Source: a bacterium (GTDB lineage Bacteria > Desulfobacterota > Binatia > HRBIN30 > CADEER01). Taken from it: a stretch of DNA of 64,000 bases. Below are positions 5,575 through 60,225 of the stretch, piece after piece. The position numbers and the translations under genes were made by a program. The notes under the pieces were generated by a model. That model made no database searches, was not told where the DNA came from, and was given only the letters and a program-made list of their open reading frames with translations. The stretch is taken from positions 150,286 through 214,285 of the forward strand of contig JAHBUY010000007.1 in the NCBI GenBank assembly GCA_019637795.1, in the 5' to 3' direction. How positions within the stretch are numbered: the stretch's first letter is position 1; each line of letters starts with the position of its first letter.

Positions 5575-5638
5575 TGCGCACCGATGAGCGGGCGAAAACG
5601 CGTTGACCGAGCGAATTCTTTCTGGGCACAATTCCCGT

Positions 5639-6160
5639 ATGAGCCGCGAAGACGCGATCCCGATGACCGTCGGCGGGCTGACCCTCGATCCCGCGACCAA
5701 GACGCCGATCGTCATTCTGCGCGACGACGACAACAAGCTGAACCTCCCGATCTGGATCGGCCTGCTGGAGGCGACCGCGATCGCCACCGAGCTCGAGGGC
5801 ATCCAGATGACGCGGCCGATGACTCACGATCTCCTGCGCAACCTCATCGGCGAGCTCGGCGCCACGGTGCAGAGCATCGAGATCTCCGACCTGCGCGACA
5901 ACACGTACTATGCCGTCATCAATCTCGTCGTGGACGGCGCGCCCCGCATCATCGATTCCCGACCCAGCGACGCGATTTCCCTGGCACTGCGCGCCAAGAG
6001 CCCGATCTACGTCGCGCGCCGTGTGCTCGAGGCCTCGAGCGTGCTGCAGCAGGGCGAGAGCGGCGACAACGTCGAGAGCAACCTGTCCAACGTCTCGCGC
6101 GACAAGTGGTCGGAGATCCTCGAGAAAATGTCGCCGGACGACTTCAAGTACAAGATGTGA
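5639..6160 (+). CDS. Bifunctional nuclease family protein (DUF151)
   Basis: LPIWIG..EA.AI, RPMTHDLL, IDSRPSDAISLALR. Confidence 0.9.
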   Translation: MSREDAIPMTVGGLTLDPATKTPIVILRDDDNKLNLPIWIGLLEATAIATELEGIQMTRPMTHDLLRNLIGELGATVQSIEISDLRDNTYYAVINLVVDGAPRIIDSRPSDAISLALRAKSPIYVARRVLEASSVLQQGESGDNVESNLSNVSRDKWSEILEKMSPDDFKYKM

Positions 6161-10269: not shown

Positions 10270-10512
10270 ATTCGTCGGCGCAGTGCCGAGCCTGGGGCGG
10301 ATCGGTCACCCCCTTTGCCGGGGACGGTGGCGCCTGTCAGCGGCCCGCGAACCAAGGCACAGCGGCGCTGTGGGGGGCGCCCGGCAGACCGCCCTGGCTG
10401 CGCCGCGACGCTAAGCCGAGCGGCGCAGTGGATGCCTCTGGTCGTCAGCACAACGCGCAGCGCGAGTGCCGGCCGACGGGTGGGACAGCACCCACCTCGT
10501 CGGCCGCGGGTA

Positions 10513-10647
10513 CTACTTGCCGCTGGTTGCGCTCTGCGCGTCGCTGTCTGCCTTGCCGTCGCAGGCGAGCACCGGCGCCGCGAGCACCGTCGCGACGAAC
10601 GCGCAGGCGAGTGCAGCCATCACCAGGCGGCGTATGGAATGACGCAT
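10513..10647 (-). CDS. 44-aa secreted-type small protein
   Basis: AAGGAGG Shine-Dalgarno 8 nt before ATG; signal-peptide-like MRHSIRRLVMAALACAFVATVLAAPVLA followed by CDGKADSDAQSATSGK. Confidence 0.6.
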   Translation of the reverse strand: MRHSIRRLVMAALACAFVATVLAAPVLACDGKADSDAQSATSGK

Positions 10648-10863
10648 CTGTCGATCCTCCTTCGTGGCCGTATCGTACACGCATGAAGGAGTCCGGCAAC
10701 CCGGTGTCGTGGGGGTCTGTGCGGCCTGGGCTGGTCGTCCGGGACGCTGCCGTCCTCCCGTCTCCCTTCCGGACCGGGGAGCCGGCGCCATCCCATCGGC
10801 GGGCTCGCGCGCTTTGCGTCCGGGCGCGGATGTGGCAGATGCCGCTCCATGGAGAGAGGAGAC

Positions 10864-11418
10864 ATGATGCGTCGAGGGGATCACCGATCGTATGCTGCGG
10901 CACTGGTCGGCGCCGGCGCTGCCGCGTTGCTGCTCGCCGGGTGCGTGTTCCAGTCTACTTACAACAACATGCTGCAGCAGCAGGAGGCGATCGAGTCCGC
11001 GCTGCGCTCGGAGATCGCCGCCGATCAGGTCAAGATCGACCAGTTGGAGAACGGCATCCGGGTGCGGATGTCGAATGACCTGCTCTTCCGTGAGGGGGGC
11101 GTCGAGCTGAGCGAGGCGGGTGCGCGCGCCCTGGACAAGGTCGTGCCGCAGCTCAACACCAGTGCGTACATCGTGGACGTGGTCGGCAGCACCGACAACG
11201 TGCCCATCGGTCCCGGGCTGGCCGACCGCTATCCGACCAACTGGGAGCTCGCCGGCGCGCGTGCGGCAGTGGTGGTCCGTCACCTGCAGGCTGGCGGCGT
11301 CGACCCGACCGCGATGCGAGCGGTATCGGACGGCCAGTACCACCCGGTCGCCTCCAACGACACGGCGCAGGGTCGCGCCGACAACCGCAACGTCTCCCTG
11401 CTGCTGCGCCCGCGCTGA
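10864..11418 (+). CDS. OmpA/MotB-family lipoprotein
   Basis: Lipobox LLAGC; GSTDNVPI, YPTNWELA.ARA..VV, N.T..GRA.NRNV. Confidence 0.9.
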   Translation: MMRRGDHRSYAAALVGAGAAALLLAGCVFQSTYNNMLQQQEAIESALRSEIAADQVKIDQLENGIRVRMSNDLLFREGGVELSEAGARALDKVVPQLNTSAYIVDVVGSTDNVPIGPGLADRYPTNWELAGARAAVVVRHLQAGGVDPTAMRAVSDGQYHPVASNDTAQGRADNRNVSLLLRPR

Positions 11419-11556
11419 TCGCACCGCGCGGGCGACTCGAGGATCGCGCGTTCCTCGTGCAACGCGACCTCGATGCCGCCGGTGAGGTTCTTCACCCTGG
11501 TCGGGTCGGCATGGACAGCCAGAGAGCCTTCCGGTAAGTCGGGCGAGTCAGCGTGA

Positions 11557-11630
11557 GCCCCCGTAGCTCAGGTGGATAGAGCACAGGATTCCTAATCCTG
11601 GGGTCAGGCGTTCGAGGCGCCTCGGGGGTA
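11557..11630 (+). tRNA. tRNA-Arg(CCT), chimeric at attL (3' half apparently element-derived)
   Basis: Cloverleaf: acceptor GCCCCCG/CGGGGGT, anticodon stem CAGGA/TCCTG with loop TTCCTAA, T-arm AGGCG-TTCGAGG-CGCCT. Confidence 0.9.
11588..11603 (+). repeat. attL core
   Basis: ATTCCTAATCCTGGGG, identical to 23995-24010; spans the anticodon loop. Confidence 0.92.
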
Positions 11631-11670
11631 CGTAAAATCAGCAACTTGCGCCGGCGGCACCCGCGAAATT

Positions 11671-11688
11671 GTTTCCATCTGTTTCCAC
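11671..11688 (+). promoter_or_regulatory. Putative integrase arm-type sites (attL side)
   Basis: GTTTCCATCT GTTTCCAC tandem; related tandem GTTTCCATC at 23874-23893 near attR. Confidence 0.65.
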
Positions 11689-11711
11689 GGGTGCCGCCGG
11701 GTCGCAAGGTC

Positions 11712-12875
11712 TCAGCCTTTGGCCGCGTCGGCGGCGATGCCGTCGAGGCTCGCCAGCGCCGACGGATCGTGCTCGGCGCGCAGCCAGTGCGCGTAGACGC
11801 GACGGGTGACAGAACTGTCCTTGTGGCCACAGAGCGCCGCCACCTCCGTGTCCGCCCGGCCCGCCATGAGCAGCGTCGACGCGAAGGTGTGCCGCAGGGA
11901 GTGCAGCCGCACGCGCTTCACGCCGGCGGCATCGCAGGCCGGGTGCAGCGCCTTGTGGGCAAGCGTGCTGCGATGCACGGGCGTCCCCTCGCTTGACGGG
12001 AACACCCATCCGTCCGCGGTCGGCGGACATGCCAGCTTCCAGCGCCGCAGGGCGGCGACCAATTCGGGGCGGAGCGGGATGCGGCGCTTGCCGGCGCTCG
12101 TCTTGGGCGGCTTGTAGGTCGGCCCGCTGGCCGGCTCGTCGCGCCGATGGGCCCACGTGACGCTGCGCGCGATCCGCACCTCGCCCTTGGTCAAGTCGAT
12201 GTCATCCCAGATGAGCGAGGTCAGCTCCCCTACCCGCCCGCCGGTCAGCACCGCCATGTGCAGGAAGGTCTGGTACATGCCCGGCGTCGCCTGTGCGATG
12301 ACGGTGCGCGCCTGCTCGGCGGACAGCACTGTGGTCGGGTCCACCGCGCCGTCCTCCAACTCGGCTGCCAGCTCGGCGAGCGCCTTGACGGACTTCGCCG
12401 CGACCACGCGCCGGCAGCGCGGCACGACGTCCACCGGGTTGCGGTCGATGTACTCGTGGCGGACGGCATAGTTGAACACGTCGGCTGCGGTGGTCAGGAA
12501 CTTGTTGACCGTCTGCGGCGCCAGCTTCGCCGCCAGCCGATTGCGGCAGAAGGCTTCCAGGTGCCGCACGCGGATCTGGTCGATGCGGTGCTCGCCGAGG
12601 ATCGGCACAAGGTGCAGGTCGAGGTGAACTTGGTAGCCGGCGATGGTCGCCACGCTCACGCGCTCGGCCCGCTCAGCCAGCCAGTCCGCCGCCACTGCCT
12701 TGAAGGTCGGCAGTTGGTCAGGCGCTAAGAAGGTGCCCTTCTGAAGCTGGCTCGTCACCTGCGCCAGGTAGGCGTAGGCAGCCGGCTCATCGGCGCACGG
12801 CTTGATGAAGCGCCGGCCGGTGTCGTCGCGCCAGTCGGCGCACCACTTGCCGCGAACCTGTCGGACCGTTGCCAT
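11712..12875 (-). CDS. int: Tyrosine recombinase/integrase
   Basis: N-terminal arm-binding-like RGKWCADWRD; catalytic set GGRVGEL (R), PPKT (K), HSLRHT (HxxR), GHKD (H), VYAH (Y); AAGGAGG SD. Confidence 0.95.
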   Translation of the reverse strand: MATVRQVRGKWCADWRDDTGRRFIKPCADEPAAYAYLAQVTSQLQKGTFLAPDQLPTFKAVAADWLAERAERVSVATIAGYQVHLDLHLVPILGEHRIDQIRVRHLEAFCRNRLAAKLAPQTVNKFLTTAADVFNYAVRHEYIDRNPVDVVPRCRRVVAAKSVKALAELAAELEDGAVDPTTVLSAEQARTVIAQATPGMYQTFLHMAVLTGGRVGELTSLIWDDIDLTKGEVRIARSVTWAHRRDEPASGPTYKPPKTSAGKRRIPLRPELVAALRRWKLACPPTADGWVFPSSEGTPVHRSTLAHKALHPACDAAGVKRVRLHSLRHTFASTLLMAGRADTEVAALCGHKDSSVTRRVYAHWLRAEHDPSALASLDGIAADAAKG

Positions 12876-12894
12876 GCTCTCCCCTCCTTTGGTG

Positions 12895-13401
12895 TTACCG
12901 TCGCTTGAGCGACTGCATCAGCTCGTTGATGTCGCTCATGACTTCCGCGTGCGCTGGATTGAGGTCCGGGTGGTACTTCTTGGCGAGGCGGCGGTACACC
13001 TCACTGTCGACGCTGGGCGTCTGTCCGCGCCCGCCGAACATCTCGAACAACCGTTCCCGGTTCATGCGATTGGCGCGCTTCTCCATGCGGGCGAGGCGCA
13101 GGTCGAATTGTAGTTGTTTGACCTTTTCGCGGGCGGCGTCGCGCGCGCCCGCGATGGTCTCGACTCGGCGATGCAGAGCACGGATCTCGTCCAGGCGCCG
13201 CTCGAGCTGCGCCCGGAGGGACGCCAGCTCTGCCGCGACGCGCTCCTCGCGGTCGAGAAACTGCGTCAACCACGCCGGCATGGCGAGTACGCCCCGTTCC
13301 CATCGAGCTACCGTATTGGCGGCGACGCCTAGCTCCGCCGCAAGGGCAACCTGGGTTAACGCGCGGCGATGGCGATACTCTCGAAGGGCAGACGGCGTCA
13401 T
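12895..13401 (-). CDS. XRE HTH regulator fused to coiled coil and C-terminal J-domain-like segment
   Basis: LREYRHRRALTQVALAAELGVAANTVARWERG (XRE); C-terminus YRRLAKKYHPDLNP...EVMSDINE (helix II-HPD-helix III). Confidence 0.8.
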   Translation of the reverse strand: MTPSALREYRHRRALTQVALAAELGVAANTVARWERGVLAMPAWLTQFLDREERVAAELASLRAQLERRLDEIRALHRRVETIAGARDAAREKVKQLQFDLRLARMEKRANRMNRERLFEMFGGRGQTPSVDSEVYRRLAKKYHPDLNPAHAEVMSDINELMQSLKRR

Positions 13402-13454
13402 ACGATGGTCGGCTATACCATACGTATGGCGGCGCCGTCTATACCTATCGTATG
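13399..13454. promoter_or_regulatory. AT-richer operator-like cluster upstream of the XRE gene
   Basis: Perfect palindrome CCATACGTATGG (13418-13429), flanking inverted CATACGAT/ATCGTATG, direct repeat CTATACC x2. Confidence 0.55.
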
Positions 13455-13736
13455 CGTGGTGCTGAGCCGGTACACCGTCACCGCCCCCAGCTCCGCCCCG
13501 CAGAGCGCGCAGCCCGCGTCGAGGTCGCCGGGTAGCGGCGCCCCCGGCCGCTCCTGCATGTAGCGGCAGCGCGGCTGCGAGCAGGTGACGCGCGTCCACA
13601 GACTCGCTGCGGCGCAGCGATCCGGCGCAGCCATTGCCGGCCGGGCCGGCGGGTGCGATGCGCCCGCCATGGACTGGACGTATCTGGCGATGGGCGCGGG
13701 CATGATCCTGCTCATGCTGCTGCTGACCTCGCTCAT
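13413..13736 (-). CDS. Hypothetical protein with Cys pairs (possible Zn ribbon)
   Basis: Starts at an ATGA overlap with the upstream ORF; C....C and CALC motifs; competes with an antisense peptide ORF. Confidence 0.4.
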   Translation of the reverse strand: MSEVSSSMSRIMPAPIARYVQSMAGASHPPARPAMAAPDRCAAASLWTRVTCSQPRCRYMQERPGAPLPGDLDAGCALCGAELGAVTVYRLSTTHTIGIDGAAIRMV

Positions 13737-13743
13737 CGACTAG
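13669..13743 (+). CDS. 24-aa hydrophobic peptide (possible type I toxin-like)
   Basis: MDWTYLAMGAGMILLMLLLTSLID*, a single TM-length helix; no clear SD. Confidence 0.35.
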   Translation: MDWTYLAMGAGMILLMLLLTSLID

Positions 13744-13867
13744 CCCACCACCGCACCCGACACCGCGGGCACCGCCCCGGCACCTCCCGCGGCGCGTAGA
13801 GCAGCACCAGGCCGCAGGCGCACGTCACGCGGACGCCGCCAGGGACGAGACGGACGGTGGCCGTCAT
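13733..13867 (-). CDS. 44-aa Zn-ribbon-like protein
   Basis: MTATVRLVPGGVRVTCACGLVLLYAPREVPGRCPRCRVRWWASR; ATGA overlaps at both ends. Confidence 0.55.
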   Translation of the reverse strand: MTATVRLVPGGVRVTCACGLVLLYAPREVPGRCPRCRVRWWASR

Positions 13868-13980
13868 GGCTGCCGGCCCCGGAGGGGCGGACGCCGAGTA
13901 GCCTGCATCACCGGCCGATCACGCGCGACGGCCGTGAGCCCACGCAGGCACCGCCGCGCAACCGCCTCCCGCATCATCAC
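13864..13980 (-). CDS. Small basic hypothetical protein (~38 aa)
   Basis: GTGA overlap with the upstream stop and ATGA overlap with the downstream start. Confidence 0.4.
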   Translation of the reverse strand: MMMREAVARRCLRGLTAVARDRPVMQATRRPPLRGRQP

Positions 13981-14882
13981 GCCGCCGGCACCGCCGCCGT
14001 AGGCTCCGGCTGCGGCGCGCGCTCCAGCTCCTCGCGCGCCCGCACGGCGGCCTCGCGCCGGCGCTGCGCGCGACGCTCCAGCCGCTCCTGCGCGTGGCGG
14101 ATGCCGCTGCCCGGCCCCTCGGCCTCCAGCGCCGGCCCGCTCGGCTTCTCGGCGGTGGTCACGGCGCCGACGTCGTCGACGTCGCCGGTCGCCATCTGGC
14201 CATAGACCTGGCGGATGGTCTCGGCGTCGGCGGCGATGGCGTCGAGCACCTCGAGCACCTCCGCCTGGTCGGCCGGCAGCGGCGTGGCCGTGATCGCCTC
14301 GTGGACGCGCCGACGCACGGGTGCGTACGCCTTGCCGGCGCGGCCGTCGAGCTCGTCGGCCAGCACGCCAAGCAGCCACAGGTTGCGGTCGGCCGCGGCC
14401 TGCTCGACGAGGTGCGTAAGCGTCCGCGCGCTCGCCCGCGACACGCGCTGCAAGGCGGTGAACTGCGTCAGCGTGTTCGCCAGCTCGGCCGCCTGCTGGC
14501 GCTGCTCATGGTGCTGCCGCGCCGCATCGACCTGGAAGTCGGCGAGCCCGTCAACCAACTCGTGCCGGTTGAACGGCTTGACCGCCGGGACCGGGCGAGC
14601 GCGGAGCGCCGCCAGGTACGGGTCGGACAGCGCGGCCCGCTCGGCCTGCAGCGCCTGCGCCCGACTGAGCGCGGCGTCCGCCAGCGGCCGCGCCCGCCTC
14701 ACGGCGTCGCGGCGCGCCTGCGCCTTGCGCCCGGCGCGGTAGTCCGCCTGGTAGGCCGCGACGATGTCGGGGGCATCCATCGCGGCCCGCTCGATCTGCA
14801 ACGCATCCCGCGCGGCGATCATGGCGGTGCGCGTCGTGGCGATCTCGGCCGCGGCCTGCTGGAGTGCTCGGCGATCGATCAT
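13977..14882 (-). CDS. All-helical hypothetical protein (~301 aa)
   Basis: Ala/Arg/Gln-rich helices; ATGA overlap with the upstream ORF fixes the start. Confidence 0.75.
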   Translation of the reverse strand: MIDRRALQQAAAEIATTRTAMIAARDALQIERAAMDAPDIVAAYQADYRAGRKAQARRDAVRRARPLADAALSRAQALQAERAALSDPYLAALRARPVPAVKPFNRHELVDGLADFQVDAARQHHEQRQQAAELANTLTQFTALQRVSRASARTLTHLVEQAAADRNLWLLGVLADELDGRAGKAYAPVRRRVHEAITATPLPADQAEVLEVLDAIAADAETIRQVYGQMATGDVDDVGAVTTAEKPSGPALEAEGPGSGIRHAQERLERRAQRRREAAVRAREELERAPQPEPTAAVPAA

Positions 14883-15115
14883 CGGGCACCCCACTTCCCC
14901 GCCGCACTGCCGCGGGGGCCGAGCCGGCCGTCGACCACGTCGACGGCGCCGCGCCCCGGCGGCGGCGGACTCACGCGCGTCTGCGCGGCGACGGCATCGG
15001 TGCGCTGCGCCCGCGGCCGCACAAGCGCGGCGGCCTCAGCCGGCGTGAAGCCCGGCGATCGCCGCGCCCCACTGCGACGCGCGGCGGCGATGGCGTTGGT
15101 AATCGTGTTCTTCAT
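14879..15115 (-). CDS. Hypothetical protein (78 aa)
   Basis: GGAGG SD then MKNTITNAIAAARR... Confidence 0.6.
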   Translation of the reverse strand: MKNTITNAIAAARRSGARRSPGFTPAEAAALVRPRAQRTDAVAAQTRVSPPPPGRGAVDVVDGRLGPRGSAAGKWGAR

Positions 15116-15173
15116 CTCGAATCCTCCGGTAGTGGCTCGCGTCTCGGCGCCCGCGAGCGATGGCGCATGAAGG

Positions 15174-16604
15174 TCAGCCCCAGAGCACGCGGGAGATACT
15201 GCCGGTGGCGCGGCCACCGTGCGCGATGGCGAGCGCCACCACGTTGGCGACGTCGTCATGGCCGCCCCGCGGATGGTCGACGGAATCGCGGCCGGTGCGT
15301 GACGTGGTGCGCCGCTGGAGCAAACTGAACTGCCGCATCATCCGGTCGGCAGTCACCGAGCGCGCCGGGTCCGGCAACGAGACCCGCCCACCGACCAGCC
15401 ACGGCAACGCGAGTACGTATGCCTCCGAGCGCGTGTGCAGCGTCGGCATCACGCCGAGCCCGACGCGACGCAGCGCATCAACGAGGAACTCTGATGCGTA
15501 CCGGTCCGACCACACGACGCCGACGCCATACGGCCGCAGGAAGTCGCGCAGGCGCTCGACCGCCGCCGCCACCTGAAACGGGGGGCGAGTCTCGAGCAGG
15601 TCGTCGACCACGATCAGCGGCGCCCCATGGCGCGTCTCGCGATGGTAGACGCAGGCCGTGAACGAATCGCCCGCCTGGGTGCCGGACGCGGCGTCGATGG
15701 CCGCGGCGTAGGCGTGCCCCATCGGCGGCCGGCGCACCCGGTCCTGCTCGACGCAGCCCTCGAGCTCGGTCCAGCCAATCAGCCCCTCGATGTCGGCCCG
15801 GAACTCCGCATCCCACTCCGCCCGCGCCGCCGCGGGATCATCGGCGTGCGCCTCGTCGATCACCGTCTGCGCGATCGTCGGGTTCATGCGGCGGGTCGGC
15901 GCCTGCCACGTCAGCACCGGCGAGCCGTCGACGCCGTGGTGGGCGCGATACCAGTCCCAGAGCACCCCACGCCGCGCATACGGCGAGGAGATGCACAGCA
16001 GCAGCGAGCCCGGCACACGCGCCAGCCCCGGCGTCACCGCGCGCACCAGCTCGGCGTCCGGGTTGGCGGCGTCGTCCGTCGGCAAGAACGCGCACTCATC
16101 GATCACCGCGCCGGCCAGCGAATAACCGCGGGTCGAGCGGAAGGACGCGGTGTGAATCTCGATGACACAGCCCGTCGAGAGCGTCAGGCTCTCGCTGGTC
16201 TCGGCGGTGACCAGCCGGTCGAGCATGGGCGATGCGCGCAGGAGCCCGCGCACGTAGCGGAACGCCACCCGCGCCTGGCGGCGGTCGGGACACAAGAGCA
16301 TCGCCGTCGCCAGCTCCCCCGGCCCGAGCACGGGGCGGAAGTCGCGCGAGCAGGCGAGATAGACGATCAGGAACGCGGCGAGCAGCGTCTTGCCCGAGCC
16401 GCGGCCGGCGATCACCATCGCCCGCGATGCCGGCACGGTCGGCGCCGCCGAGCGCCCCGAGCAGGCGCGGTAGATCGCCAGCGCCTCGGCATCGAGCGGC
16501 AACCCGTAGATCGCCGCCACCAACGCCCGAGCAGCAGCGAACGATGGGCCGCCGAAGGTCCGCCCGCACAGGTGCGGGTCGGTCATCCAGTCGAGCGGCG
16601 TCAC
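15174..16604 (-). CDS. terL: Terminase large subunit-like protein
   Basis: Walker A VIAGRGSGKT, Walker B AVIDECAF, ISSP coupling motif, RNase H-like AAIDAASG and HDDVAN. Confidence 0.85.
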   Translation of the reverse strand: MTPLDWMTDPHLCGRTFGGPSFAAARALVAAIYGLPLDAEALAIYRACSGRSAAPTVPASRAMVIAGRGSGKTLLAAFLIVYLACSRDFRPVLGPGELATAMLLCPDRRQARVAFRYVRGLLRASPMLDRLVTAETSESLTLSTGCVIEIHTASFRSTRGYSLAGAVIDECAFLPTDDAANPDAELVRAVTPGLARVPGSLLLCISSPYARRGVLWDWYRAHHGVDGSPVLTWQAPTRRMNPTIAQTVIDEAHADDPAAARAEWDAEFRADIEGLIGWTELEGCVEQDRVRRPPMGHAYAAAIDAASGTQAGDSFTACVYHRETRHGAPLIVVDDLLETRPPFQVAAAVERLRDFLRPYGVGVVWSDRYASEFLVDALRRVGLGVMPTLHTRSEAYVLALPWLVGGRVSLPDPARSVTADRMMRQFSLLQRRTTSRTGRDSVDHPRGGHDDVANVVALAIAHGGRATGSISRVLWG

Positions 16605-16789
16605 GCGGCAGGCCTCCCGCAGGTCGGGCACCGCCACCGCTCGAGCGCCCGATCGAGCGCCCGATCGTCGTCGCGGTCGACGATCACACGGGGATGCCCA
16701 TCGACGCCGCACCACACACCAGCGCGGGCACGCCAGATGCCAGCAGCGGGCGGCACGTCCCGGCAGGGCGGCGCGTCGTGCCAGCTCAT
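16601..16789 (-). CDS. Small hypothetical protein with CPTC motif
   Basis: 62 aa; 4-nt overlaps on both sides. Confidence 0.55.
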   Translation of the reverse strand: MSWHDAPPCRDVPPAAGIWRARAGVWCGVDGHPRVIVDRDDDRALDRALERWRCPTCGRPAA

Positions 16790-17061
16790 GCGCCGTCCTC
16801 GCCAATCGGCGGCACCGGCACGGGGAACACGCCGGCGATCTCCTCGGCGCCGTCGATGTCGACGTAAACCACCGTGACGTGCGACGGCGGCGGGTCGGCG
16901 GGAATGAAGGAGTCGAGGTCGGCGTCGGCGTCGCCAGCCAGCTCGAGGGCGCGCTGCGCCGCCTCGCGCCGGGCGCGCACCTGTGCGGCGATGGCGGCGC
17001 CGAGCGCCTGCGCGGCGTGGCGGTCGGCGGCGGAGGACCAGCGGCGGTGATCGCGGGTCAT
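16786..17061 (-). CDS. Hypothetical protein (91 aa)
   Basis: 4-nt overlaps on both sides. Confidence 0.6.
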   Translation of the reverse strand: MTRDHRRWSSAADRHAAQALGAAIAAQVRARREAAQRALELAGDADADLDSFIPADPPPSHVTVVYVDIDGAEEIAGVFPVPVPPIGEDGA

Positions 17062-17495
17062 CGGATGTCCTCGCCCGCCTGCGGCGATCCTGGGGCCGGG
17101 AAGTCGCTCTGAGTGTTGGCCGCCGCGCGGTGGCGCGCGAGGGCGGCGGTGCCGGCCGCAACCAACGCGGCCCGGTGCTCCTCGCTCAGTCGCCGGCGCC
17201 GGTACGGCCGCAGGATCGCCAGCACGGCGTCGAGGTGGTCGACGTGAAAGACGACGCGCACCTCAGCGTCGCCCAGCGCCCGCTCGACGAACGGCAGCGC
17301 CCGCAGATGCACCCCGATGCGCGGCCGGTCGGTCCACGCGAACAGCCGCTCGCCGCCCTGGGCGCCGACGTAGCCATGCCGGCAGGCGATGCGAGCGAGC
17401 CAGGGGCGGTCAGCGACGGGCCAGTCGGCGGCCTGCGGCTCGAAGACGATGCGGTAGCGGCGGCTATACCGGGCGGATAGGTCGATGCAGGTCAT
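17058..17495 (-). CDS. Hypothetical phage-type protein (145 aa)
   Basis: Globular composition; 4-nt overlaps on both sides. Confidence 0.7.
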   Translation of the reverse strand: MTCIDLSARYSRRYRIVFEPQAADWPVADRPWLARIACRHGYVGAQGGERLFAWTDRPRIGVHLRALPFVERALGDAEVRVVFHVDHLDAVLAILRPYRRRRLSEEHRAALVAAGTAALARHRAAANTQSDFPAPGSPQAGEDIR

Positions 17496-18010
17496 GCGGG
17501 ATCGTCTCCTGTGGTGTCGGCGGACACCTCGGCGTCGACCACGGCCGCCTCGGCCGGCGGCGCCGCCTCGGCCGGCGCGGCAGCGGTCGTGGCGCGGTCG
17601 CGCAGGTAGGCGTCGAGCGACGGCAGGTCGGCAGCGCGGTCCGGGCGCAGGCCGAGCGCCTGCAGCATCCGCGAAAGCGACTGAACGTGCGTCACGTAGC
17701 CGCGGCGCAAGATCGGCAGCAGCTCGCCAGCCGCGTCAACCAGGCGGTCGGCCTGGAACACATGCCCCTCGATGGTCGAGCAGATGAGCGCCGCCGCGGC
17801 GCAGCGGTCGACCAGCAAGCGCTCACGCGCTGTCAGCCGGTCGTAGCCGCCGGCATCGGCGGCGAGGTCCTGGCGCAGCTCGGCGAGCGCCCGAGCAATC
17901 CAGGTCCGCTGGTCGAGACTGCCGGCGGCGAGGTGGCGGGCGAGCGAGCGGGCGCCGTGTTTCGGCGGCGTGCCGGCGCGTCGGCGCATAGGCACCGGGC
18001 GGCTAGCCAT
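17492..18010 (-). CDS. Terminase small subunit-like protein
   Basis: N-terminal KHG and C-terminal LGL.P motif typical of P27-like TerS; upstream of terL in the same operon. Confidence 0.55.
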   Translation of the reverse strand: MASRPVPMRRRAGTPPKHGARSLARHLAAGSLDQRTWIARALAELRQDLAADAGGYDRLTARERLLVDRCAAAALICSTIEGHVFQADRLVDAAGELLPILRRGYVTHVQSLSRMLQALGLRPDRAADLPSLDAYLRDRATTAAAPAEAAPPAEAAVVDAEVSADTTGDDPA

Positions 18011-18431
18011 GGCGGATCACCGCCTGAAATCCCGTACCCCTGCCCAGCGTCTCGGTGGAAACAGATGGAAACGGACCCGCGCCGTTGCTGGATTTTTCGG
18101 CGGTCGCAGGACTGCCCATCCTGTGGTCCGCCTCGAGCGCTGCGCGCACGGCGCCGCGATCGAAGCGCCAGTACTTGCCGCAGCGCCGCGCCGGCAGCCG
18201 ACCAGCACGCGCCTGCGCGCGGAACCACGTCACCGGCAAGTGGAACTCGGCGGCCAGCTCATCGGCGGTCGCGAAGGCGGTGCGCGATGGCGGCACATCG
18301 GCTGGCGCGGTCATCGCCGCGACCAACTGCACCTGCGCGCCGGCGAGGGCAGCCACGGCGGCGGCCCGATCGGTCGCGGACAGCTCGGCGCAGGCACGAT
18401 CCAGCGTCCGGCGCAGCTCCTCGAGCGTCAT
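18003..18431 (-). CDS. Excisionase-like (HTH_17/MerR-type) DNA-binding protein
   Basis: FATADELAAEFHLPVTWFRAQARAGRLPARRCGKYWRFDRGAV winged-helix Xis signature. Confidence 0.75.
   Translation of the reverse strand: MTLEELRRTLDRACAELSATDRAAAVAALAGAQVQLVAAMTAPADVPPSRTAFATADELAAEFHLPVTWFRAQARAGRLPARRCGKYWRFDRGAVRAALEADHRMGSPATAEKSSNGAGPFPSVSTETLGRGTGFQAVIRHG
18055..18072 (-). repeat. Internal inverted exact copy of the attL arm-type 18-mer
   Basis: GTGGAAACAGATGGAAAC is the reverse complement of 11671-11688. Confidence 0.85.
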
Positions 18432-18527
18432 CGGCGGCCCCGGGGCGCAATCTGTGAAGCATTGCCGGCGGCGGAGGTGCCGGTCGCGGGGGGAATCATC
18501 ATGCCCCATCCCCTACAGCCGACCCCA

Positions 18528-18668
18528 GACGGATACGGCGTATCTGTCTCGCCGGTCCGACCCAGGCTCAGACCAGGCTCACCAGGCTCACGGTCCATAT
18601 GTCTCTCGCGCGCGCGCGCGCTATGCGGGTAAACGGACGGAGAGCCTGATAAGCCTGCTTGGGCCTGG
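18528..18668. promoter_or_regulatory. Putative replication origin of the element
   Basis: CCAGGCTCA x3 (18562, 18573, 18582), a (CG)7 run at 18607-18621, three inverted degenerate copies (GAGCCTG, AAGCCTG, GGCCTGG); directly downstream of the D5 helicase gene. Confidence 0.65.
18533..18543. promoter_or_regulatory. ATAC-GGC-GTAT palindromic site, copy 1 of 4
   Basis: Identical 11-mers at 20154, 20979, 22870; here the arms extend to GACGGATAC/GTATCTGTC. Confidence 0.7.
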
Positions 18669-18687
18669 CGGTGGGTCATTTGGGCCG

Positions 18688-20100
18688 TCATTCCTGTTCT
18701 TGGGCTGCCGCTCGCAGCCGAACACCGACGCGAAACCGGACGCCACCGATCTTCTCGGCGTGGATGCCGAGCCGGTGCAGCTCGTCGCCGAAGTCGCGCT
18801 TCTTGAGCGCGTCGTGCCTCAGCTCGGCGACGTAGGCATCGAACAGCACCTTGAACGGCGTGCGTGCTCGCGGGTCGCGCTCGCAGTACTCGTCGACCCA
18901 CTGCCCGACAGCGTCCATCTCGGCGCGGTAGGCGGCGGTGGCGGCGCGGACGATCTCGGGCGGGCGCAGGCCGTCGGCGTACCAGGCGATGGCGCCGTCG
19001 ATGATCCAACGGAGGATGCCGGGCAGCTCGTCGGTGAGCGAGGCGGCGAAGTCGCGGACCAGATTGGTCTGCAGCCGCTCCTCGAGGTTGACGACGAAGG
19101 GCACCAGATGGATGCGGCGCCAGATGGCGGGGTCGGTGCCGCGGACGTCGGGCTTGTGATTCCCCGCCAGCCAGAACGTGTGCGTCGGCGCGAACTCGAA
19201 GAAGTCCTGCCGCATGTACCGCGCCTTCAACTGGTCGCCGCCGGTGAGCCACTTGACCTTCGTTTCGGCCAGCCCGCGACCCTGCTCGGTCTCGATGGCC
19301 GAGACCAGGCGGGCGCCCATCAAGTCGGCGATCTCGGTCGGGTGCGCGTCGTGCTTGGTCGCCATCAACAGCGACGGGGCGGCGGTGCGGGCGTAGTCGC
19401 CGAGTGCGGCATGGAGCAGCGACAGGAAGGTCGACTTGCCGTTTGCGCCGCTGCCCCACAAGAACAGCAAGCACTGCTCGCGGACCGACCCCGTGGCGCT
19501 GTAGCCGGCGGCGCGCTGCAGGAAGTCGATCAGCGCCGTGTTGTCGAAGGTCAGCGTCAAGAACTCCATGAACCGTGGACAGGTCGCGTCCGGGTCATAG
19601 GCGACTGGCGTGCGGCGGCTGATGAGGTCCTCGCGGCGGTGCGGGCGCAGCTCGCCAGTGCGGAGGTCGACGGTGCCGTTCTCGCAGGTCAGCAACCACG
19701 GGTCGCGATCGAAGGCGTCGGGCGGGAGCGCCACGCGCCGATCGGCAGCGGCGAGCGCCAACATCGCCTCCAGCCGGTTGCGCTTGCCGGACGCAAGGAA
19801 GTGTTGCGCCAGGATGGCCCGCTCCTCGGGCGAGCCAGCGGCGCCCACCTCGGCCCACCACTGCGCGATGGTGGTGGTCGCCAGCGCCATCGTCGCGGCC
19901 GTAGCATCGGGCTGCCAGCGTCCCTCCGTCCAGACGTGCCAGCCGGCGCCGCGGTGCGCGTAGCGCAGCGTGTCGGCGTGCGCGTCGATGAACGCCTCGG
20001 CGTTGGCGACGTCGGTGGTGCGCCACTTGGCGTCGCGGATGGCAGCGGGGTTGGGTAGATCGCTCGCGCCGAAGAGGTCTACGATCTTCCCGCGGCTCAT
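18688..20100 (-). CDS. P4/D5-family SF3 helicase (phage/plasmid primase family C-terminal part)
   Basis: D5_N region (TDVANAEAF...W), Walker A GSGANGKST, KWLTGGD, GNHKP, WRRIHLVPF. Confidence 0.9.
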   Translation of the reverse strand: MSRGKIVDLFGASDLPNPAAIRDAKWRTTDVANAEAFIDAHADTLRYAHRGAGWHVWTEGRWQPDATAATMALATTTIAQWWAEVGAAGSPEERAILAQHFLASGKRNRLEAMLALAAADRRVALPPDAFDRDPWLLTCENGTVDLRTGELRPHRREDLISRRTPVAYDPDATCPRFMEFLTLTFDNTALIDFLQRAAGYSATGSVREQCLLFLWGSGANGKSTFLSLLHAALGDYARTAAPSLLMATKHDAHPTEIADLMGARLVSAIETEQGRGLAETKVKWLTGGDQLKARYMRQDFFEFAPTHTFWLAGNHKPDVRGTDPAIWRRIHLVPFVVNLEERLQTNLVRDFAASLTDELPGILRWIIDGAIAWYADGLRPPEIVRAATAAYRAEMDAVGQWVDEYCERDPRARTPFKVLFDAYVAELRHDALKKRDFGDELHRLGIHAEKIGGVRFRVGVRLRAAAQEQE

Positions 20101-21008
20101 CGGGGCGCATCCTGGGCTGTCATGCGGCGCACCGTACCGGCCGTGCGTGCCGGATACGGCGTATGTGTCCGCTGCCCTGACCCGGCATCGTAGGATTCGA
20201 CGCTGGCCAAGATGGCGTTGACTTCGCGTTTCCCCAGCGGCTTGTCGCAGCGTTCCGTGTTCGCGGTGTGGACGGACGCGCAGAGCAGCTTCCACTCCAC
20301 CTTCCGCGCCCGCATCGACGCCGCGTAGCGGAACAGCGTGTCGTTGCGCTCGCCCTTGCCGATCGTGTCCGGCAGCCGGAACGGGTCGCCGTGCTCGCCG
20401 CGGAGCTCGTCGAGGTGGCGAATCGCCGCGACCCAGAGCGGCGGCAGCTCGGGCAACGGGAGGTCGGCGGCCGAGTAGCCGATCAAGTAGGCGTAGCCGC
20501 GGCAGGGCGGCGGAAAGACCAGGCTGTTGTCGCCGCGGATGTCGACACCGGCACCCAGCTTGGCGACCGAATTGCGAATCCCGCCGGGCGCCTGGAAGTA
20601 TCGGTGCTCGCCGTGGTGCGGGGTCGTGACCGTTGGCGCATCCGGTAGCGGGCCGTAGCGCTGTTCCAGGTCGTGGAGTGTGTCGCAGCCGTCGACGCCG
20701 TGTTTGCGGTCGGCGTCGAGGATCAGCAGGCGATCGGTGGTGAGGAGCGCGCAGTCGGCATCGGGAAACCGCTGCCACCAGCGGTCTAGTTGGTCGAGGT
20801 CATCGCTCGCCCGCTGGTGGCCAACACCAGTCGGCCCGATGCAGGTCCAGCGTGTGCCCGGCCGCATCGGCACCACGCGCGTGTGCCAGTGCGCGATGTA
20901 CCACTGTGCGGCGCGCAGGCCGCGCGGCGTCTGTTGTGGCGGCGTCATGAGCGGCGGTGTACGTGGCGCCGCGCCCACATACGGCGTATCCGTCCCCGGC
21001 GTCATCAT
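20097..21008 (-). CDS. Bifunctional DNA primase/polymerase (Prim-Pol + PriCT)
   Basis: LLILDAD, VTTP..G.H.YF, GVDIRG, PriCT-like GERNDTLFRYA. Confidence 0.85.
   Translation of the reverse strand: MMTPGTDTPYVGAAPRTPPLMTPPQQTPRGLRAAQWYIAHWHTRVVPMRPGTRWTCIGPTGVGHQRASDDLDQLDRWWQRFPDADCALLTTDRLLILDADRKHGVDGCDTLHDLEQRYGPLPDAPTVTTPHHGEHRYFQAPGGIRNSVAKLGAGVDIRGDNSLVFPPPCRGYAYLIGYSAADLPLPELPPLWVAAIRHLDELRGEHGDPFRLPDTIGKGERNDTLFRYAASMRARKVEWKLLCASVHTANTERCDKPLGKREVNAILASVESYDAGSGQRTHTPYPARTAGTVRRMTAQDAPR
20154..20164. promoter_or_regulatory. ATAC-GGC-GTAT site, copy 2
   Basis: About 55 nt upstream of the D5 helicase start. Confidence 0.65.
20979..20989. promoter_or_regulatory. ATAC-GGC-GTAT site, copy 3
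   Basis: At the 5' end of the Prim-Pol gene. Confidence 0.65.
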
Positions 21009-22645
21009 CCGGCCACCGTTCGTGCTGCTGTCGACTGCCAGCCGCGGCCGGCGACGATGCGGCGCACCTGTCGGCGGGTGAGCGCATCGGCCGCGGCGCC
21101 CTTGCTCATGCCCGGCACGTAGCCCGCACGTAGCGCCGCGCGTTGCCCATCGCTGGCAGGTTGGCTGCGCCAGCGCGCATCCGCCCGGGCGATGCGCCAG
21201 CGTGCCGGGTCGGCGCGCAGCAGCTCCTCCGCGACGCCCTGTGCCAGCTCGAGCGACGGCACGGCGCGATGCACGGTTTCGACGGTCCGCGTCTCTCGTG
21301 ATTGCCACAGCACGTCGACCGTCCCGTCCGCCTCGGTCGACAGGATCACCACGCCATCGCCCATCGACACGGCGTAACTGCCATCGACCGTCAGCCAGGC
21401 GATGCGACTGTCGCGCGGCGCGAAGAGCGCCACCTCGCGCGCGGTCAGTGCCGCGGCCCGTCCCTGCTCCGCTGCCTCCCGTGCTGCGGCCTGGGCCGCG
21501 TCTGCGGCGAGCACGCCATCGGCCAGCGCCGCCGCCGGCGTCTCGAACAGTACGGCGGCCGTCATCAGGTCATGGGTGCCTGTCGCGCCGACGCAATCGA
21601 GTACCAGGCAGTCCGCCTTTGCCGGGTGCTTCCGCGCGCCGCGCCCGAGCATCTGCTGATAGAGCACGGGGCTGCGCGTCGGACGGGCGATGCAGACGCA
21701 ATCCACGCGCGGAAGGTCGACGCCTTCCGTGGCGACGCCGACGTTGACCAGCACGGGCAGCTCGCCGGCGCGCACCGCCGCGAACAGTGCGGCCCGCTCG
21801 TCGGTAGGGGTGGCGCCCGTAACCAGCGCGGCGTGCAGTCCGCGCCCCCGGCACGCATCGACGGTTGCCTCGGCCACCGCGATCGTCGGCGCGAACACCA
21901 GCGAGACGCGGCCCGATGCGTGCTCGGCCAGTGCGGTGGCGATGTGTACCGGCGCGTCGGCGCCGCTCAGCGCCTCGCCGAGCGCCCCTTGCGCGTAGTC
22001 GCCATCGACGCGCGGTAGGCTGGCGAGGTCGACCGCCAGCGCAATCTGCAGCCCGCGGAAGTCGCACAGGTAGCCCTGGCGGATCAGCTCGATCAGCGAG
22101 GTCTGATACACGATCTCCTGATACGTCGGCGCCAGGCCGCGCCCGTCGGCGCGTGTCAGCGTGGCGGACACGCCGAGGAGCTGCGGCGCGTCGGCCCCAT
22201 CGTCGAGCGCCCCGACGCCGGCGAGCACCGTCTGGTAGCTCTGCGCGGCGCTGTGGTGCGCTTCGTCCACCACGACGAGCGAAAAACGGCCGGCGGCGCC
22301 GATCTGCTCGAGCCGGCGCGGCTGCCGCAGCGTCGGGACGCTGCCGACGATCACGGCGGCGTCAGGCGTGTTGTGGTCGGCGCGGACGATGCCGATGGCG
22401 CGGGCATCGCCGAGCACATAGCCGATCGTCGCGGCGGCCTGGTCGATCAGCTCCTCGCGGTGCGCGAGCACCAGCGCCCGGTCGCCGCGTCGGACATGCT
22501 CGGCGACCAAATGACCAAACGTGACCGTCTTGCCGCCGCCGGTCGGGATTTGGATTGCCGCACGGCGGATACCGCGGAGCGCCGCGGCGCCGATCGCCGC
22601 GAGCGCATCCCGTTGGTAGGGGCGCAGCGCGATTCCCGCGCTCAT
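21005..22645 (-). CDS. SF2 DEAD/DEAH-box helicase
   Basis: LRPYQ, PTGGGKT, DEAHH, SAT, EGVDLP, QMLGRGAR. Confidence 0.92.
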   Translation of the reverse strand: MSAGIALRPYQRDALAAIGAAALRGIRRAAIQIPTGGGKTVTFGHLVAEHVRRGDRALVLAHREELIDQAAATIGYVLGDARAIGIVRADHNTPDAAVIVGSVPTLRQPRRLEQIGAAGRFSLVVVDEAHHSAAQSYQTVLAGVGALDDGADAPQLLGVSATLTRADGRGLAPTYQEIVYQTSLIELIRQGYLCDFRGLQIALAVDLASLPRVDGDYAQGALGEALSGADAPVHIATALAEHASGRVSLVFAPTIAVAEATVDACRGRGLHAALVTGATPTDERAALFAAVRAGELPVLVNVGVATEGVDLPRVDCVCIARPTRSPVLYQQMLGRGARKHPAKADCLVLDCVGATGTHDLMTAAVLFETPAAALADGVLAADAAQAAAREAAEQGRAAALTAREVALFAPRDSRIAWLTVDGSYAVSMGDGVVILSTEADGTVDVLWQSRETRTVETVHRAVPSLELAQGVAEELLRADPARWRIARADARWRSQPASDGQRAALRAGYVPGMSKGAAADALTRRQVRRIVAGRGWQSTAARTVAG

Positions 22646-22848
22646 GTGGCGTCGTTCCGTCGCTGATGTCGCGGCGGCTCGAGGAGCTGATGCGCCTCGA
22701 CAAAGAACTGTTCGAGGTCCTTCCGTAGGGCGCGCTCCGCCCGCTCGCGGGCGACGGAGCGCGACCAGGCGCGCAGGAGCGCGCGGAGGGCCGGGTTGCG
22801 GGACCGACGGAGCGCCGATGGCAGTGCGGGTGTCGTCATGCGCCGCAT
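22642..22848 (-). CDS. Small basic hypothetical protein (68 aa)
   Basis: ATGA overlap with the helicase start. Confidence 0.55.
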   Translation of the reverse strand: MRRMTTPALPSALRRSRNPALRALLRAWSRSVARERAERALRKDLEQFFVEAHQLLEPPRHQRRNDAT

Positions 22849-22869
22849 GGTAGGCGGCGCAGATGACTG

Positions 22870-22880
22870 ATACGGCGTAT
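22870..22880. promoter_or_regulatory. ATAC-GGC-GTAT site, copy 4
   Basis: Intergenic, upstream of the replication operon. Confidence 0.7.
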
Positions 22881-22890
22881 TCGTCGCGCG

Positions 22891-23721
22891 CTACTTCTGC
22901 GCGACCTTCAGGGCCTTCCGCACGGACGCAAATTGCAGGATCACGCGCCGCGCACCGCCGCGCGCGGCCTCCGTGTATTCCACGGTGATGGTCCGCGCCT
23001 CGCGGTCCACGTCGACTTCGGTAGCGAGCGGTAGGAGGTTGCCGTCCATCAGGGCCAACGCATCCTCGACGGTGTCCGGGTCGCCGAGCACCTTTAGGAA
23101 CCCCTTCCATGTCTGCGGTTGGGTCGCCGCCCACACGCGACGAAAGAGCACTGTGTGTGGCTGCTTGGGTTTCCCTTTGCCCGCACGGCCGGCGGCGCTA
23201 TTTTGAGTCCGTATTTTCGTGCGGTCTGCCACCACTTTCCGCCGCGCCTCCGCGTCGCCGACGATGTAGAGCGCTTGCTCGCCGAGCCACCGGTCGATGA
23301 TTGCGCGCTCCGATTGGTCGTCGGCCGTCATGGTGAGCAGCCCGTGCATCATGTCGCCGGACCAGTCGGGGTGCCCGCCCGTGGCGTGCAGGCGTTTCCA
23401 GGCCGCTCTATACGTGCGGTCGAGTTCCTTCTGTCGCTCGCGCACGTCGGTATCGCTCTCGCCGGGACGCCGGGCGCGCTCAATGGCCGCCTCAGCCGCG
23501 ATTACCGCGCAGAGTGCTACCGCCGTAACCCGCCGTCGCTGCGCCGTCGCTCTATACGTCTCGGCGTCTCGCTGGCGCGGTGTGCCGTCGCGGTTCCAGG
23601 TCGACTCCGCCATCAGGCGCCGTCGCACCTCGTCGAGGATGACGGCGCGGAACGGATCCTGTCGCGATTCCTTCGCCGGCGGCGTTGCCCCCGGCTTCCG
23701 CGTCGTGCGTGTCGCCATCAT
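22891..23721 (-). CDS. Hypothetical protein (276 aa), first gene of the element
   Basis: Long ORF with protein-like composition; basic C-terminal region. Confidence 0.7.
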   Translation of the reverse strand: MMATRTTRKPGATPPAKESRQDPFRAVILDEVRRRLMAESTWNRDGTPRQRDAETYRATAQRRRVTAVALCAVIAAEAAIERARRPGESDTDVRERQKELDRTYRAAWKRLHATGGHPDWSGDMMHGLLTMTADDQSERAIIDRWLGEQALYIVGDAEARRKVVADRTKIRTQNSAAGRAGKGKPKQPHTVLFRRVWAATQPQTWKGFLKVLGDPDTVEDALALMDGNLLPLATEVDVDREARTITVEYTEAARGGARRVILQFASVRKALKVAQK

Positions 23722-23873
23722 CCACCACCCGTTCGTGGGACCCGATCTACTGTTGCACCGCCGCCGGCGGGGCGCTCGGGTCTGCGCCGTTCGGTGGCCG
23801 ACCTAGCCGGCGGCGGTATGGCTATGGCTACGCTACCAACTCGATTCCCGGCGAAGAAAGAGGCGCACGGCGT

Positions 23874-23893
23874 GTTTCCATCGTGTTTCCATC
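23874..23893 (+). promoter_or_regulatory. Putative integrase arm-type sites (attR side)
   Basis: GTTTCCATC-GT-GTTTCCATC, about 100 bp inside the attR core. Confidence 0.65.
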
Positions 23894-23994
23894 ACGGTGC
23901 GTCCACACCGCACGGTGCGTCAGCCGGTCCGCGAAAACGCTGAGGCTTCCGACGTATCGGACGCACGGCGCGGCGAGCCTCATGACTTGACCGC

Positions 23995-24037
23995 ATTCCT
24001 AATCCTGGGGCCGTGCGTTCGAATCGCGCCGGGGGCA
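23995..24037 (+). repeat. attR: core plus displaced 3' half of tRNA-Arg(CCT)
   Basis: Core followed by CC-GTGCG-TTCGAAT-CGCGC-CGGGGGC-A; CGGGGGC pairs perfectly with the 5' GCCCCCG at 11557. Confidence 0.92.
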
Positions 24038-59468: not shown

Positions 59469-59541
59469 TCCCCGGTAGCTCAGTCGGTAGAGCGATCGGC
59501 TGTTAACCGATTGGTCGCTGGTTCGAGTCCGGCCCGGGGAG
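59469..59541 (+). tRNA. tRNA-Asn(GTT)
   Basis: TCCCCGG/CCGGGGA acceptor, ATCGG-CTGTTAA-CCGAT anticodon arm, GTTCGAGT T-loop. Confidence 0.95.
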
Positions 59542-59547
59542 CCTGCG

Positions 59548-59581
59548 GAGGGGGCGGGTTGCTACGGCAACCCGCCCCCTC
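59548..59581. terminator. Hairpin with C(UACG)G tetraloop between convergent tRNAs
   Basis: 15-bp perfect stem GAGGGGGCGGGTTGC-TACG-GCAACCCGCCCCCTC. Confidence 0.75.
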
Positions 59582-59645
59582 GACGCTACTGAGATGGCTC
59601 CCTCAGCGCGCATCACGCCGCGCGGCGCGAGAGGGGAGGAAGGAG

Positions 59646-59718
59646 AGGCGGCGAGCGGATTCGAACCGCTGCATGGAGGTTTTGCAGACCTCTCCCTTAA
59701 CCACTTGGGTACGCCGCC
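59646..59718 (-). tRNA. tRNA-Cys(GCA)
   Basis: GGCGGCG/CGCCGCC acceptor, U73, anticodon loop CTGCAAA. Confidence 0.95.
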
Positions 59719-59801
59719 GTACCGGAGGCAGCTAACACGGGCGCTCCAGCGCCGCAACCGCGGCGCGGCCGTCGCGGACGCGATTCGCGCCCTCGGTTCG
59801 A

Positions 59802-60035: not shown

Positions 60036-60225
60036 CAGTCTCCCCTCGCTGAGCCGCTCGGCAGCCAGTTGCCGAGCTAGACAATCTGCTGTCTATCGGC
60101 GGTGCTGCGGCAAAGCAAGGCTGCTGACACGCTGCTAGTCGCACGCGCCGCAAGCGGCATTGACAACGCCTGCGAGCATTGGGGAGGATCTCCCCGCCGT
60201 GGACGCGCGCAGCGCCGCGGCGGTG

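Follow-up and report, generated by a model that had tools for sequence, protein, structure and literature searches.

The 64,000-nucleotide stretch of DNA analysed here, which we call the window (assembly GCA_019637795.1, contig JAHBUY010000007.1, positions 150,286 to 214,285), comes from a bacterium of the Binatia and carries a tRNA-Arg(CCT) gene bordered by a mobile element of 12.4 kb. The intact tRNA gene stands at the left attachment site of the element (attL), beside a tyrosine integrase gene, and a second tRNA 3' half stands at the right attachment site (attR). The two 3' halves are not identical. In our opinion it is highly probable that the element, equipped with its own lambda-type tyrosine integrase, has entered the host tRNA-Arg(CCT) at its anticodon loop, with a heterologous 3' half replacing that of the host. 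The coordinates of all the features are collected in Table 1.

Structure of the two ends

The ends of the element share a 16-bp core, ATTCCTAATCCTGGGG, which corresponds to tRNA positions 31-46, running from the final 5'-strand base of the anticodon stem through the loop TTCCTAA and the stem's 3' strand to the variable-loop Gs G44-G46. Direct reading of the sequence places the end of the identity exactly at the core limits, with adjoining bases that differ on both sides, and the left boundary is the same in a mini-element found at another locus (L128, described below). To judge from the sequences, the crossover must fall inside these 16 bp. Beyond the core, the 27-nt halves TCAGGCGTTCGAGGCGCCTCGGGGGTA (attL) and CCGTGCGTTCGAATCGCGCCGGGGGCA (attR, with the discriminator base at 24037) differ at 8 positions and are ~70% identical. 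Comparing attL with attR, the differences are U47 for C47, A49-U65 for G49-C65, G50-C64 for U50-G64, G59 G60 for A59 U60, and U72 for C72; that is, two T-stem pairs with compensating changes account for four of them and loop positions for three, and the last one makes G1-U72 out of G1-C72. The T-stems read AGGCG/CGCCT at attL and GTGCG/CGCGC at attR, and the T-loops TTCGAGG and TTCGAAT, respectively.

These features, from the 16 bp spanning the anticodon loop to the end at 24037, had been described correctly in the original prediction, which was made from the sequence without database searches. It also called G60 unusual. This holds as a matter of frequency, TTCGAGG being present in only one of the 120 other loci surveyed below, and does not hold in terms of conservation, as positions 59 and 60 are not conserved in tRNAs. 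In a simulation of random variants with 8 substitutions, 18 of 200,000 (9e-5) retained all the 12 pairs of the T-stem and acceptor stem together with the conserved T-loop residues T54, T55, C56, R57 and A58. Since such a small fraction keeps the tRNA structure, the pattern of divergence between the two halves is neither chance nor random decay.

Table 1. Features of the tRNA-Arg(CCT) locus and of the element integrated in it (positions in the window)
Feature	Position	Strand	Basis and remarks
Chimeric tRNA-Arg(CCT) gene, attL	11557..11630	+	ARAGORN (11557-11631); Rfam RF00005 tRNA model (11557-11630), 56.8 bits (gathering score 29); tRNA positions 1-30 host, 31-46 common core, 47-73 element
attL core copy ATTCCTAATCCTGGGG	11588..11603	+	16 bp; sequence
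Element-derived (P') tRNA 3' half TCAGGCGTTCGAGGCGCCTCGGGGGTA	11604..11630	+	U47, A49-U65, G50-C64, G59, G60, U72
IHF-consensus match AATCAGCAACTTG (consensus WATCARNNNNTTR)	11636..11648	+	6 nt past the tRNA, between core and P' arm repeats
P' arm-type repeats, TGTTTCCA x2 in tandem	11670..11687	+	66-84 bp right of the attL core
Tyrosine integrase, 387 aa	11712..12875	-	PF00589 1.4e-23; PF22022 and PF14659 core-binding domains
Helix-turn-helix ORF, repressor-like	12895..13599	-	Pfam HTH_31, HTH_3; PHROG transcriptional repressor or regulator
Terminase large subunit-like protein	15174..16805	-	PHROG phrog_2 3.9e-20; Pfam Terminase_6N 3e-5
HTH_17 protein, excisionase/AlpA-like	18003..18509	-	Pfam HTH_17 9e-6 (slightly under the curated cut-off); PHROG excisionase 2e-7
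D5_N/DUF5906 primase-associated helicase	18688..20778	-	Pfam D5_N 9.7e-32; true start probably ~20090
Primase-polymerase with PriCT-1 domain	20097..21308	-	Pfam Prim-Pol 1.8e-22, PriCT_1 1e-9; true start probably ~21000
Superfamily-2 helicase (ResIII / DEAD / Helicase_C)	21005..23134	-	Pfam
P arm-type repeats, TGTTTCCA x2	23873..23891	+	~105-120 bp left of the attR core
attR core copy ATTCCTAATCCTGGGG	23995..24010	+	16 bp; sequence
Displaced host-original tRNA 3' half (B') CCGTGCGTTCGAATCGCGCCGGGGGCA	24011..24037	+	Matches native halves exactly

Identity of the native tRNA half

In metagenomes, a scan for exact matches to the 47-nt 5' part of this tRNA gave 120 loci (loci are numbered here with L and sequencing runs with X). 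The 3' half most commonly joined to this 5' part, in 30 of the 120 loci, is identical to the attR remnant, and the attL version TCAGGCGTTCGAGGCGCCTCGGGGGTA was found in none of the 120. Two loci (L105 and L086) are syntenic and element-free, with a subtilase, the tRNA, a holin-like gene and a sigma-54 activator in succession (followed at L105 by the next gene). At L105 the tRNA agrees in every base with the host 5' half plus the attR half, and the tRNA of L086 has a close variant half, TCGTGCG…. Both relatives carry TTCGAAT and C72, and not the TTCGAGG and G1-U72 of the copy that now completes the tRNA of the window.

Sequences near-identical to the window are present in activated-sludge and wastewater runs, and a search of public runs with the interior of the element gives the same runs as a search with the host flank. 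The attR junction is contiguous in X1, X3 and X4, as is that of attL in X1. The most informative run is X5, in which the left-flank unitig is unbroken to 11603 and the right-flank unitig is unbroken from 23995. Each of these flank nodes has two partners. One partner is the branch of the element, with depths of 5.7 and 4.05; the other is a 44-nt unitig with a depth of 2.7 that consists of GGATAGAGCACAGG followed by 23995-24024. This is exactly the attB junction, with the 5' half joined to an attR-type half (CCGTGCG...). Because neither flank unitig breaks at the ends of the tRNA, there is no tRNA context of another organism in X5. The graph is the signature of a presence/absence polymorphism, in which empty and occupied sites coexist and about one molecule in three is empty.

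Three independent lines, namely the survey of the 120 loci, the tRNAs of L105 and L086 and the bridging unitig of X5, support the view that the half now at attR belonged originally to the host and that the element supplies a non-identical half, which makes the tRNA gene a chimera. Both points had been proposed from the sequence and are supported by these data. The opposite assignment, with a native attL half and a foreign attR half, is excluded by the geometry of recombination, by the survey, by L105 and L086, and by the X5 bridge.

Some other loci were considered for this comparison. To judge by the upstream side, L127 is the locus most closely related to the host, with flank proteins 63-90% identical; in its region 5489-5700, a tRNA-Arg(CCT) combines the rare TTCGAGG loop with another compensated stem, AACCG/CGGTT, and with C72. 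On account of the element-like trailer motifs that lie downstream of its tRNA with no intact integrase, L127 was treated as a remnant, probably a fixed one, of another element. L213 has an N-gap exactly at the anticodon (1405-1425) and is uninformative on the 3' half. An unconfirmed candidate for an empty site with a native U72 is L173, with phage-like genes upstream and only 427 bp of sequence downstream.

The flanking genes were also inspected. A gene of the PF04020 family ('mycobacterial 4-TMS phage holin', 24755-25156, +) lies just beyond attR and belongs to the host, not to the element, because it keeps its place beside the tRNA in the empty sites of L105 and L086. The upstream OmpA-like gene, whose protein is 62-79% identical to those of 'Candidatus Binatia' and 'Deltaproteobacteria bacterium' metagenome-assembled genomes (MAGs), was tried as a synteny anchor and gave 80 loci. 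It was rejected: no tRNA-Arg lies near it in the 13 closest loci (L001-L012, L037), so that it is not a conserved neighbour of the tRNA. In one of them (L004, MAG MFD05442.bin.2.281), comparison of positions 10067-20537 with 10849-31923 of the window places homologues of 30775-26052 after the OmpA-like gene in reversed order and orientation, which indicates an inversion with one end close to the tRNA/att region.

Attachment site and proposed recombination

The octamer TGTTTCCA is present in 5 copies in the window, versus 0.3 expected, and 4 of the 5 flank the att sites. The IHF consensus WATCARNNNNTTR has 3 matches in the 64 kb, versus 0.2 expected, and the match next to the tRNA, where IHF may bind, has counterparts at the same place in other occupied loci. 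From these elements we reconstruct an attP that would be formed by two TGTTTCCA repeats, a spacer of ~100 bp, the 16-bp core, the tRNA 3' half (47-73), the IHF-like site, two more TGTTTCCA repeats and the end of the integrase gene. Its attributes are those of the lambda type: arm repeats to the left and to the right of the core, an IHF-like site, and the gene of a tyrosine integrase beside the tRNA.

The anticodon loop is reportedly one of the classical tRNA sublocations for integrase crossover, as set out by Williams in 2002. By analogy, cleavage would take place in the 7-nt loop TTCCTAA, between the inverted arms of the anticodon stem. The host is a Binatia-like bacterium of activated sludge. 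The sequence 3' of the core at attL is element DNA, since strand exchange is confined to the core, and the original half of the host is left stranded at attR. The half brought by the element was not copied from the present host; it is a heterologous tRNA-Arg(CCT) half whose evolution was subject to tRNA constraints, most likely acquired from an earlier host lineage or by exchange among elements at a shared hot spot. The idea of the original prediction that the element normally targets the tRNA-Arg of another host lineage is, we think, the likeliest origin of the divergence.

Several observations weigh against this interpretation and are brought together here. The original prediction had suggested looking for both junctions: the attB junction is present in the X5 unitig, and the attP junction of the circular form, expected as …GACTTGACCGC-core-TCAGGCG…, is absent from the unitigs of four runs, in a type of data that drops rare variants. 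The runs are stored as unitigs and not as reads, and X5 is labelled metatranscriptomic though its coverage is DNA-like. The empty sites may belong to cells that never got the element. The G1-U72 pair and the G59-G60 loop cost the chimera 7.5 bits in the Rfam model, and its minimum-free-energy fold, 1 kcal/mol below the cloverleaf centroid, is not a cloverleaf. Lastly, no donor lineage with TCAGGCGTTCGAGGCGCCTCGGGGGTA as its native half was found.

Function of the chimeric tRNA

The chimera scores 56.8 bits in Rfam, the native form (L105) 64.3 and the L127 tRNA 58.2, with a cut-off of 29. A cloverleaf is possible for both the chimeric and native forms, and the centroid fold of the chimera is a cloverleaf with -33.2 kcal/mol. 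The identity elements known for the arginyl-tRNA synthetase (ArgRS) of E. coli (A20, C35, U36/G36 and A/G73) are all kept in the chimera; A73 is the same in both halves and the other determinants sit in the host 5' half or in the core. The codon AGG makes up ~4% of the Arg codons in host and element genes alike and, because of this rarity, the demand on tRNA-Arg(CCT) should be low. On these grounds the chimera is expected to work as an AGG decoder, perhaps a slightly weaker one, and it is presumably expressed and charged.

The loss of 7.5 bits, the G1-U72 pair, the non-cloverleaf minimum-free-energy fold and the low demand for AGG decoding could be also taken to mean that the chimeric gene is effectively a pseudogene, whose loss the host tolerates because AGG is rare and can be read by, for example, tRNA-Arg(UCU). 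We consider this unlikely. None of the 12 stem pairs or of the conserved T-loop residues is lost, which would happen by chance at the frequency of 9e-5 given above, the score is far over the tRNA threshold, and no tRNA gene is encoded within the element. Moreover, the T-stems at the occupied sites of relatives differ from one another (GTGCG/CGCGC, CCGCG/CGCGG and AGGCG/CGCCT) and pair in all the related elements, which points to continuing selection.

A hot spot for related elements

Homologues of the integrase with 68-75% identity adjoin tRNA-Arg(CCT) in related hosts and, when all the related integrases are considered (51-80% identity, some of them fragments only), they occupy the same place after this tRNA. 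The same TGTTTCCA arm repeats come after the integrases with at least 71% identity (L204, L192, L182, L206), and other repeats after the more distant ones; TGTTTCCA repeats are found past the tRNA in L186 too. One of these cases is the Binatia MAG GCA_031401035.1 (L204), in which the integrase, tRNA-Arg(CCT), subtilase and HD-domain protein reproduce the host context of the window, with the same TGTTTCCATCTGTTTCCA arm repeats and an ordinary tRNA half, TCGTGCG…GGGGGCA. The integrase of L206 is 71% identical and accompanies a half with TCCCGCG/CGCGG.

Occupied sites share a layout formed by the tRNA, an IHF-like motif 5-10 nt further on, and a tandem pair of 8-9-nt repeats; it is seen in the window and in L204, L206, L208, L211, L117, L133, L153, L172, L179, L128, L192, L182 and L186. 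The sequence of the arm repeats varies with the integrase subgroup, being TGTTTCCA, CTGCTACC, AAGGTCAAC, AGTGTCCA, TGTGCCCA or GTCTCTA. One of these loci, L128 (4471-7470), holds a 2.9-kb mini-element in the same anticodon-loop sublocation; its att repeats are perfect over 44 bp, and its integrase, matched in part, is 38% identical. The element of the window is the only case with both ends visible where the two halves differ. Taken together, these sequences point to tRNA-Arg(CCT) as an integration hot spot shared by a modular family of elements.

Assemblies often break at tRNA-Arg(CCT): there is a run of N in L213, and many metagenomic contigs end within the gene. Such frequent breaks agree with a repeated, polymorphic hot spot. 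An exact-protein lookup of the integrase of the window returned the same sludge contigs only, with no second host or free form, and a search of viral contigs with the integrase gave a single match of 22% identity.

The survey also allowed a look at the distribution of the features that set the attL half apart. G1-U72 co-occurs with halves that have A49-U65, which we call TCA-type, at L117, L148, L172, L133, L186, L211 and the window (position 11629), and TCA-type halves are found in the survey only beside signs of mobile elements. If sites are counted as occupied when both an IHF-like motif and a tandem repeat lie downstream, which is a crude, unvalidated classifier applied to phylogenetically non-independent loci, U72 is present in 7 of 24 clearly occupied sites versus 1 of 42 sites with neither sign (Fisher p = 0.003). 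Two pattern scans of viral contigs found no TCA-type halves, and a BLAST search of cultured phages with the element-type half and its trailer gave only chance 30-nt matches to phage tRNA-Val genes.

From this association, and from the occurrence of U72 with at least five arm-repeat classes, it might be argued that the TCA-type halves (U47, A49-U65, often U72, sometimes TTCGAGG) are a lineage borne by elements of several integrase and arm-site classes, and not by any host, that alters the host tRNA to the elements' benefit while they are integrated, through a property such as its processing, its stability or its sensitivity to a tRNA-targeting nuclease or defence system. We find this quite improbable. 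Apart from the limits of the classifier and of the sample of loci, many of the related elements have ordinary native-type halves, and no defence or nuclease gene is linked to the pattern, which would be explained just as well by a donor clade with native U72 that escaped detection. The pattern could come from such an unsampled clade or from the exchange of core modules among elements; a tRNA half propagated by elements for a function of its own is less likely, and we regard the U72 association as a lead only.

It is hardly credible that the element brought in an identical half whose attL copy mutated after an old integration, as this has no direct support beyond the relaxed constraint that low AGG demand would bring, related TCA-type halves exist at other occupied sites, the coexistence in one sample of empty and occupied sites with near-identical flanks means that the insertion is recent or still polymorphic, and two double compensatory changes plus four substitutions in 27 nt are irreconcilable with essentially identical flanks.

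Gene content of the element

The element extends from 11604 to 23994 plus one copy of the core, and its identified genes are all on the minus strand. The open reading frames (ORFs) were chosen with the guidance of GC content at third codon positions and annotated by Pfam and PHROG scans. The stop codon of the integrase is 81 bp from the end of the tRNA. For the helix-turn-helix ORF the start is uncertain, as a public gene call (L202) gives 128 aa, 12895-13281. A counterpart of the terminase-like protein exists in the L204 element, and its matches to the terminase large subunit are weak. Five ORFs of the element have no match in Pfam or PHROG, no capsid or tail genes were recognisable with these two collections, and neither ARAGORN nor Rfam finds a tRNA gene within the element (11631-23994). 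As annotated, this gene content resembles that of a phage satellite or a reduced prophage.

The codons CGA and CGT account for 148 of 521 Arg codons in the element (11712-23721) versus 47 of 445 in host genes, a preference that fits a foreign origin of the element. The Rfam motif int-alpA RNA (RF02996) has a weak match just inside the right end of the element (23746-23813, -), with 25.5 bits, below the gathering score of 35.8, and E = 0.1. Elsewhere in the window, three more tRNA genes (Asn-GTT, Cys-GCA and Met-CAT) are clustered at 59469-60859.

Significance and comparison with known systems

The locus does not overturn the current understanding of integration in tRNA genes. We think that its value lies in being a polymorphic example with compensated stem pairs, accompanied by a survey of the hot spot. 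It is a clean natural case, still polymorphic, of tRNA-gene integration that needs identity only across the crossover core, and an element can in this way put foreign, structurally compensated sequence in place of 27 nt of an essential-type RNA gene. There are practical consequences too. Island finders that seek long identical tRNA repeats would miss or misplace such boundaries, catalogues of tRNA genes from MAGs will include chimeras made by elements, and assemblies break at such a hot spot. The survey suggests that tRNA-Arg(CCT) is a busy one among bacteria of soil and sludge, and that the arm-site specificities there are modular.

In gene content, the element resembles P4-like satellites and those like phage-inducible chromosomal islands (PICI), as it has 12.4 kb, an integrase at a tRNA, an AlpA/excisionase-like HTH_17 protein, a D5_N primase-helicase and a Prim-Pol, and no recognisable capsid or tail genes. 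It departs from them in the presence of a terminase large subunit-like gene and a superfamily-2 helicase. For the element we identified neither a helper phage nor a cos/pac site, nor genes for capsid remodelling.

In its mode of integration, the element follows the Islander principle, according to which the target tRNA's 3' part is carried on attP, so that the gene is regenerated upon integration, and the displaced fragment marks the far boundary (PMC4383910). It has in common with Islander-type elements the tyrosine integrase beside the att site, the intact tRNA at one end (11557-11630) and the 3' fragment at the other (23995-24037), as well as a crossover that probably lies in a symmetric anticodon stem-loop, arm-type repeats flanking the core and a precise empty site (X5, L105, L086). 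The difference is that identity here ends at 16 bp and the remaining 27 nt are ~70% identical, which leaves the mechanism unaffected.

A close precedent is the mycobacteriophage Boilgate, whose attP and attB-4 share a 43-bp core with 5 mismatches and give a foldable tRNA-Lys at attL (Guerrero-Bustamante & Hatfull 2024, PMC10865867). In both cases attP covers the tRNA's 3' half from the anticodon loop, and the mismatches leave the attL tRNA foldable. Boilgate belongs with another phylum and another tRNA (Lys-TTT), whereas here there are 8 differences in 43 bp, two compensated pairs and a G-U at 1:72, all of them deduced from sequence data. The tRNA-dependent lysogeny of Fionnbharth and cluster L phages is based on a core of ~10 bp, and in it the tRNA is not rebuilt and a whole tRNA gene of that isotype comes with the phage (PMC10865867). 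Our element is similar to these phages in the short core at the anticodon region, the lambda-like integrase and the arm-type sites, but here the tRNA is rebuilt, with a score well above the cut-off and all stems paired, and the element lacks a tRNA gene.

Replacement of a diverged 3' end is known for a protein-coding gene as well. In E. coli, e14 and phage 21 supply a diverged functional 3' end to icd, the original is left as the fragment icdC and excision restores the other allele (Hill et al. 1989, as summarised in PMC13626634). The likeness lies in a gene whose sequence depends on the state of integration and in an element that replaces the 3' end of its target; the target in icd is protein-coding, with codon differences that are for the most part synonymous or conservative instead of compensated RNA stem pairs. 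Mismatched replacement of a gene or of a tRNA half is already published in Boilgate and in e14 in icd, and what operates here is site-specific integration of the ordinary kind, with mismatches in the common core. Within this frame, the present element is intermediate between Boilgate and tRNA-dependent lysogeny, as it combines a short identical core with a complete heterologous half.

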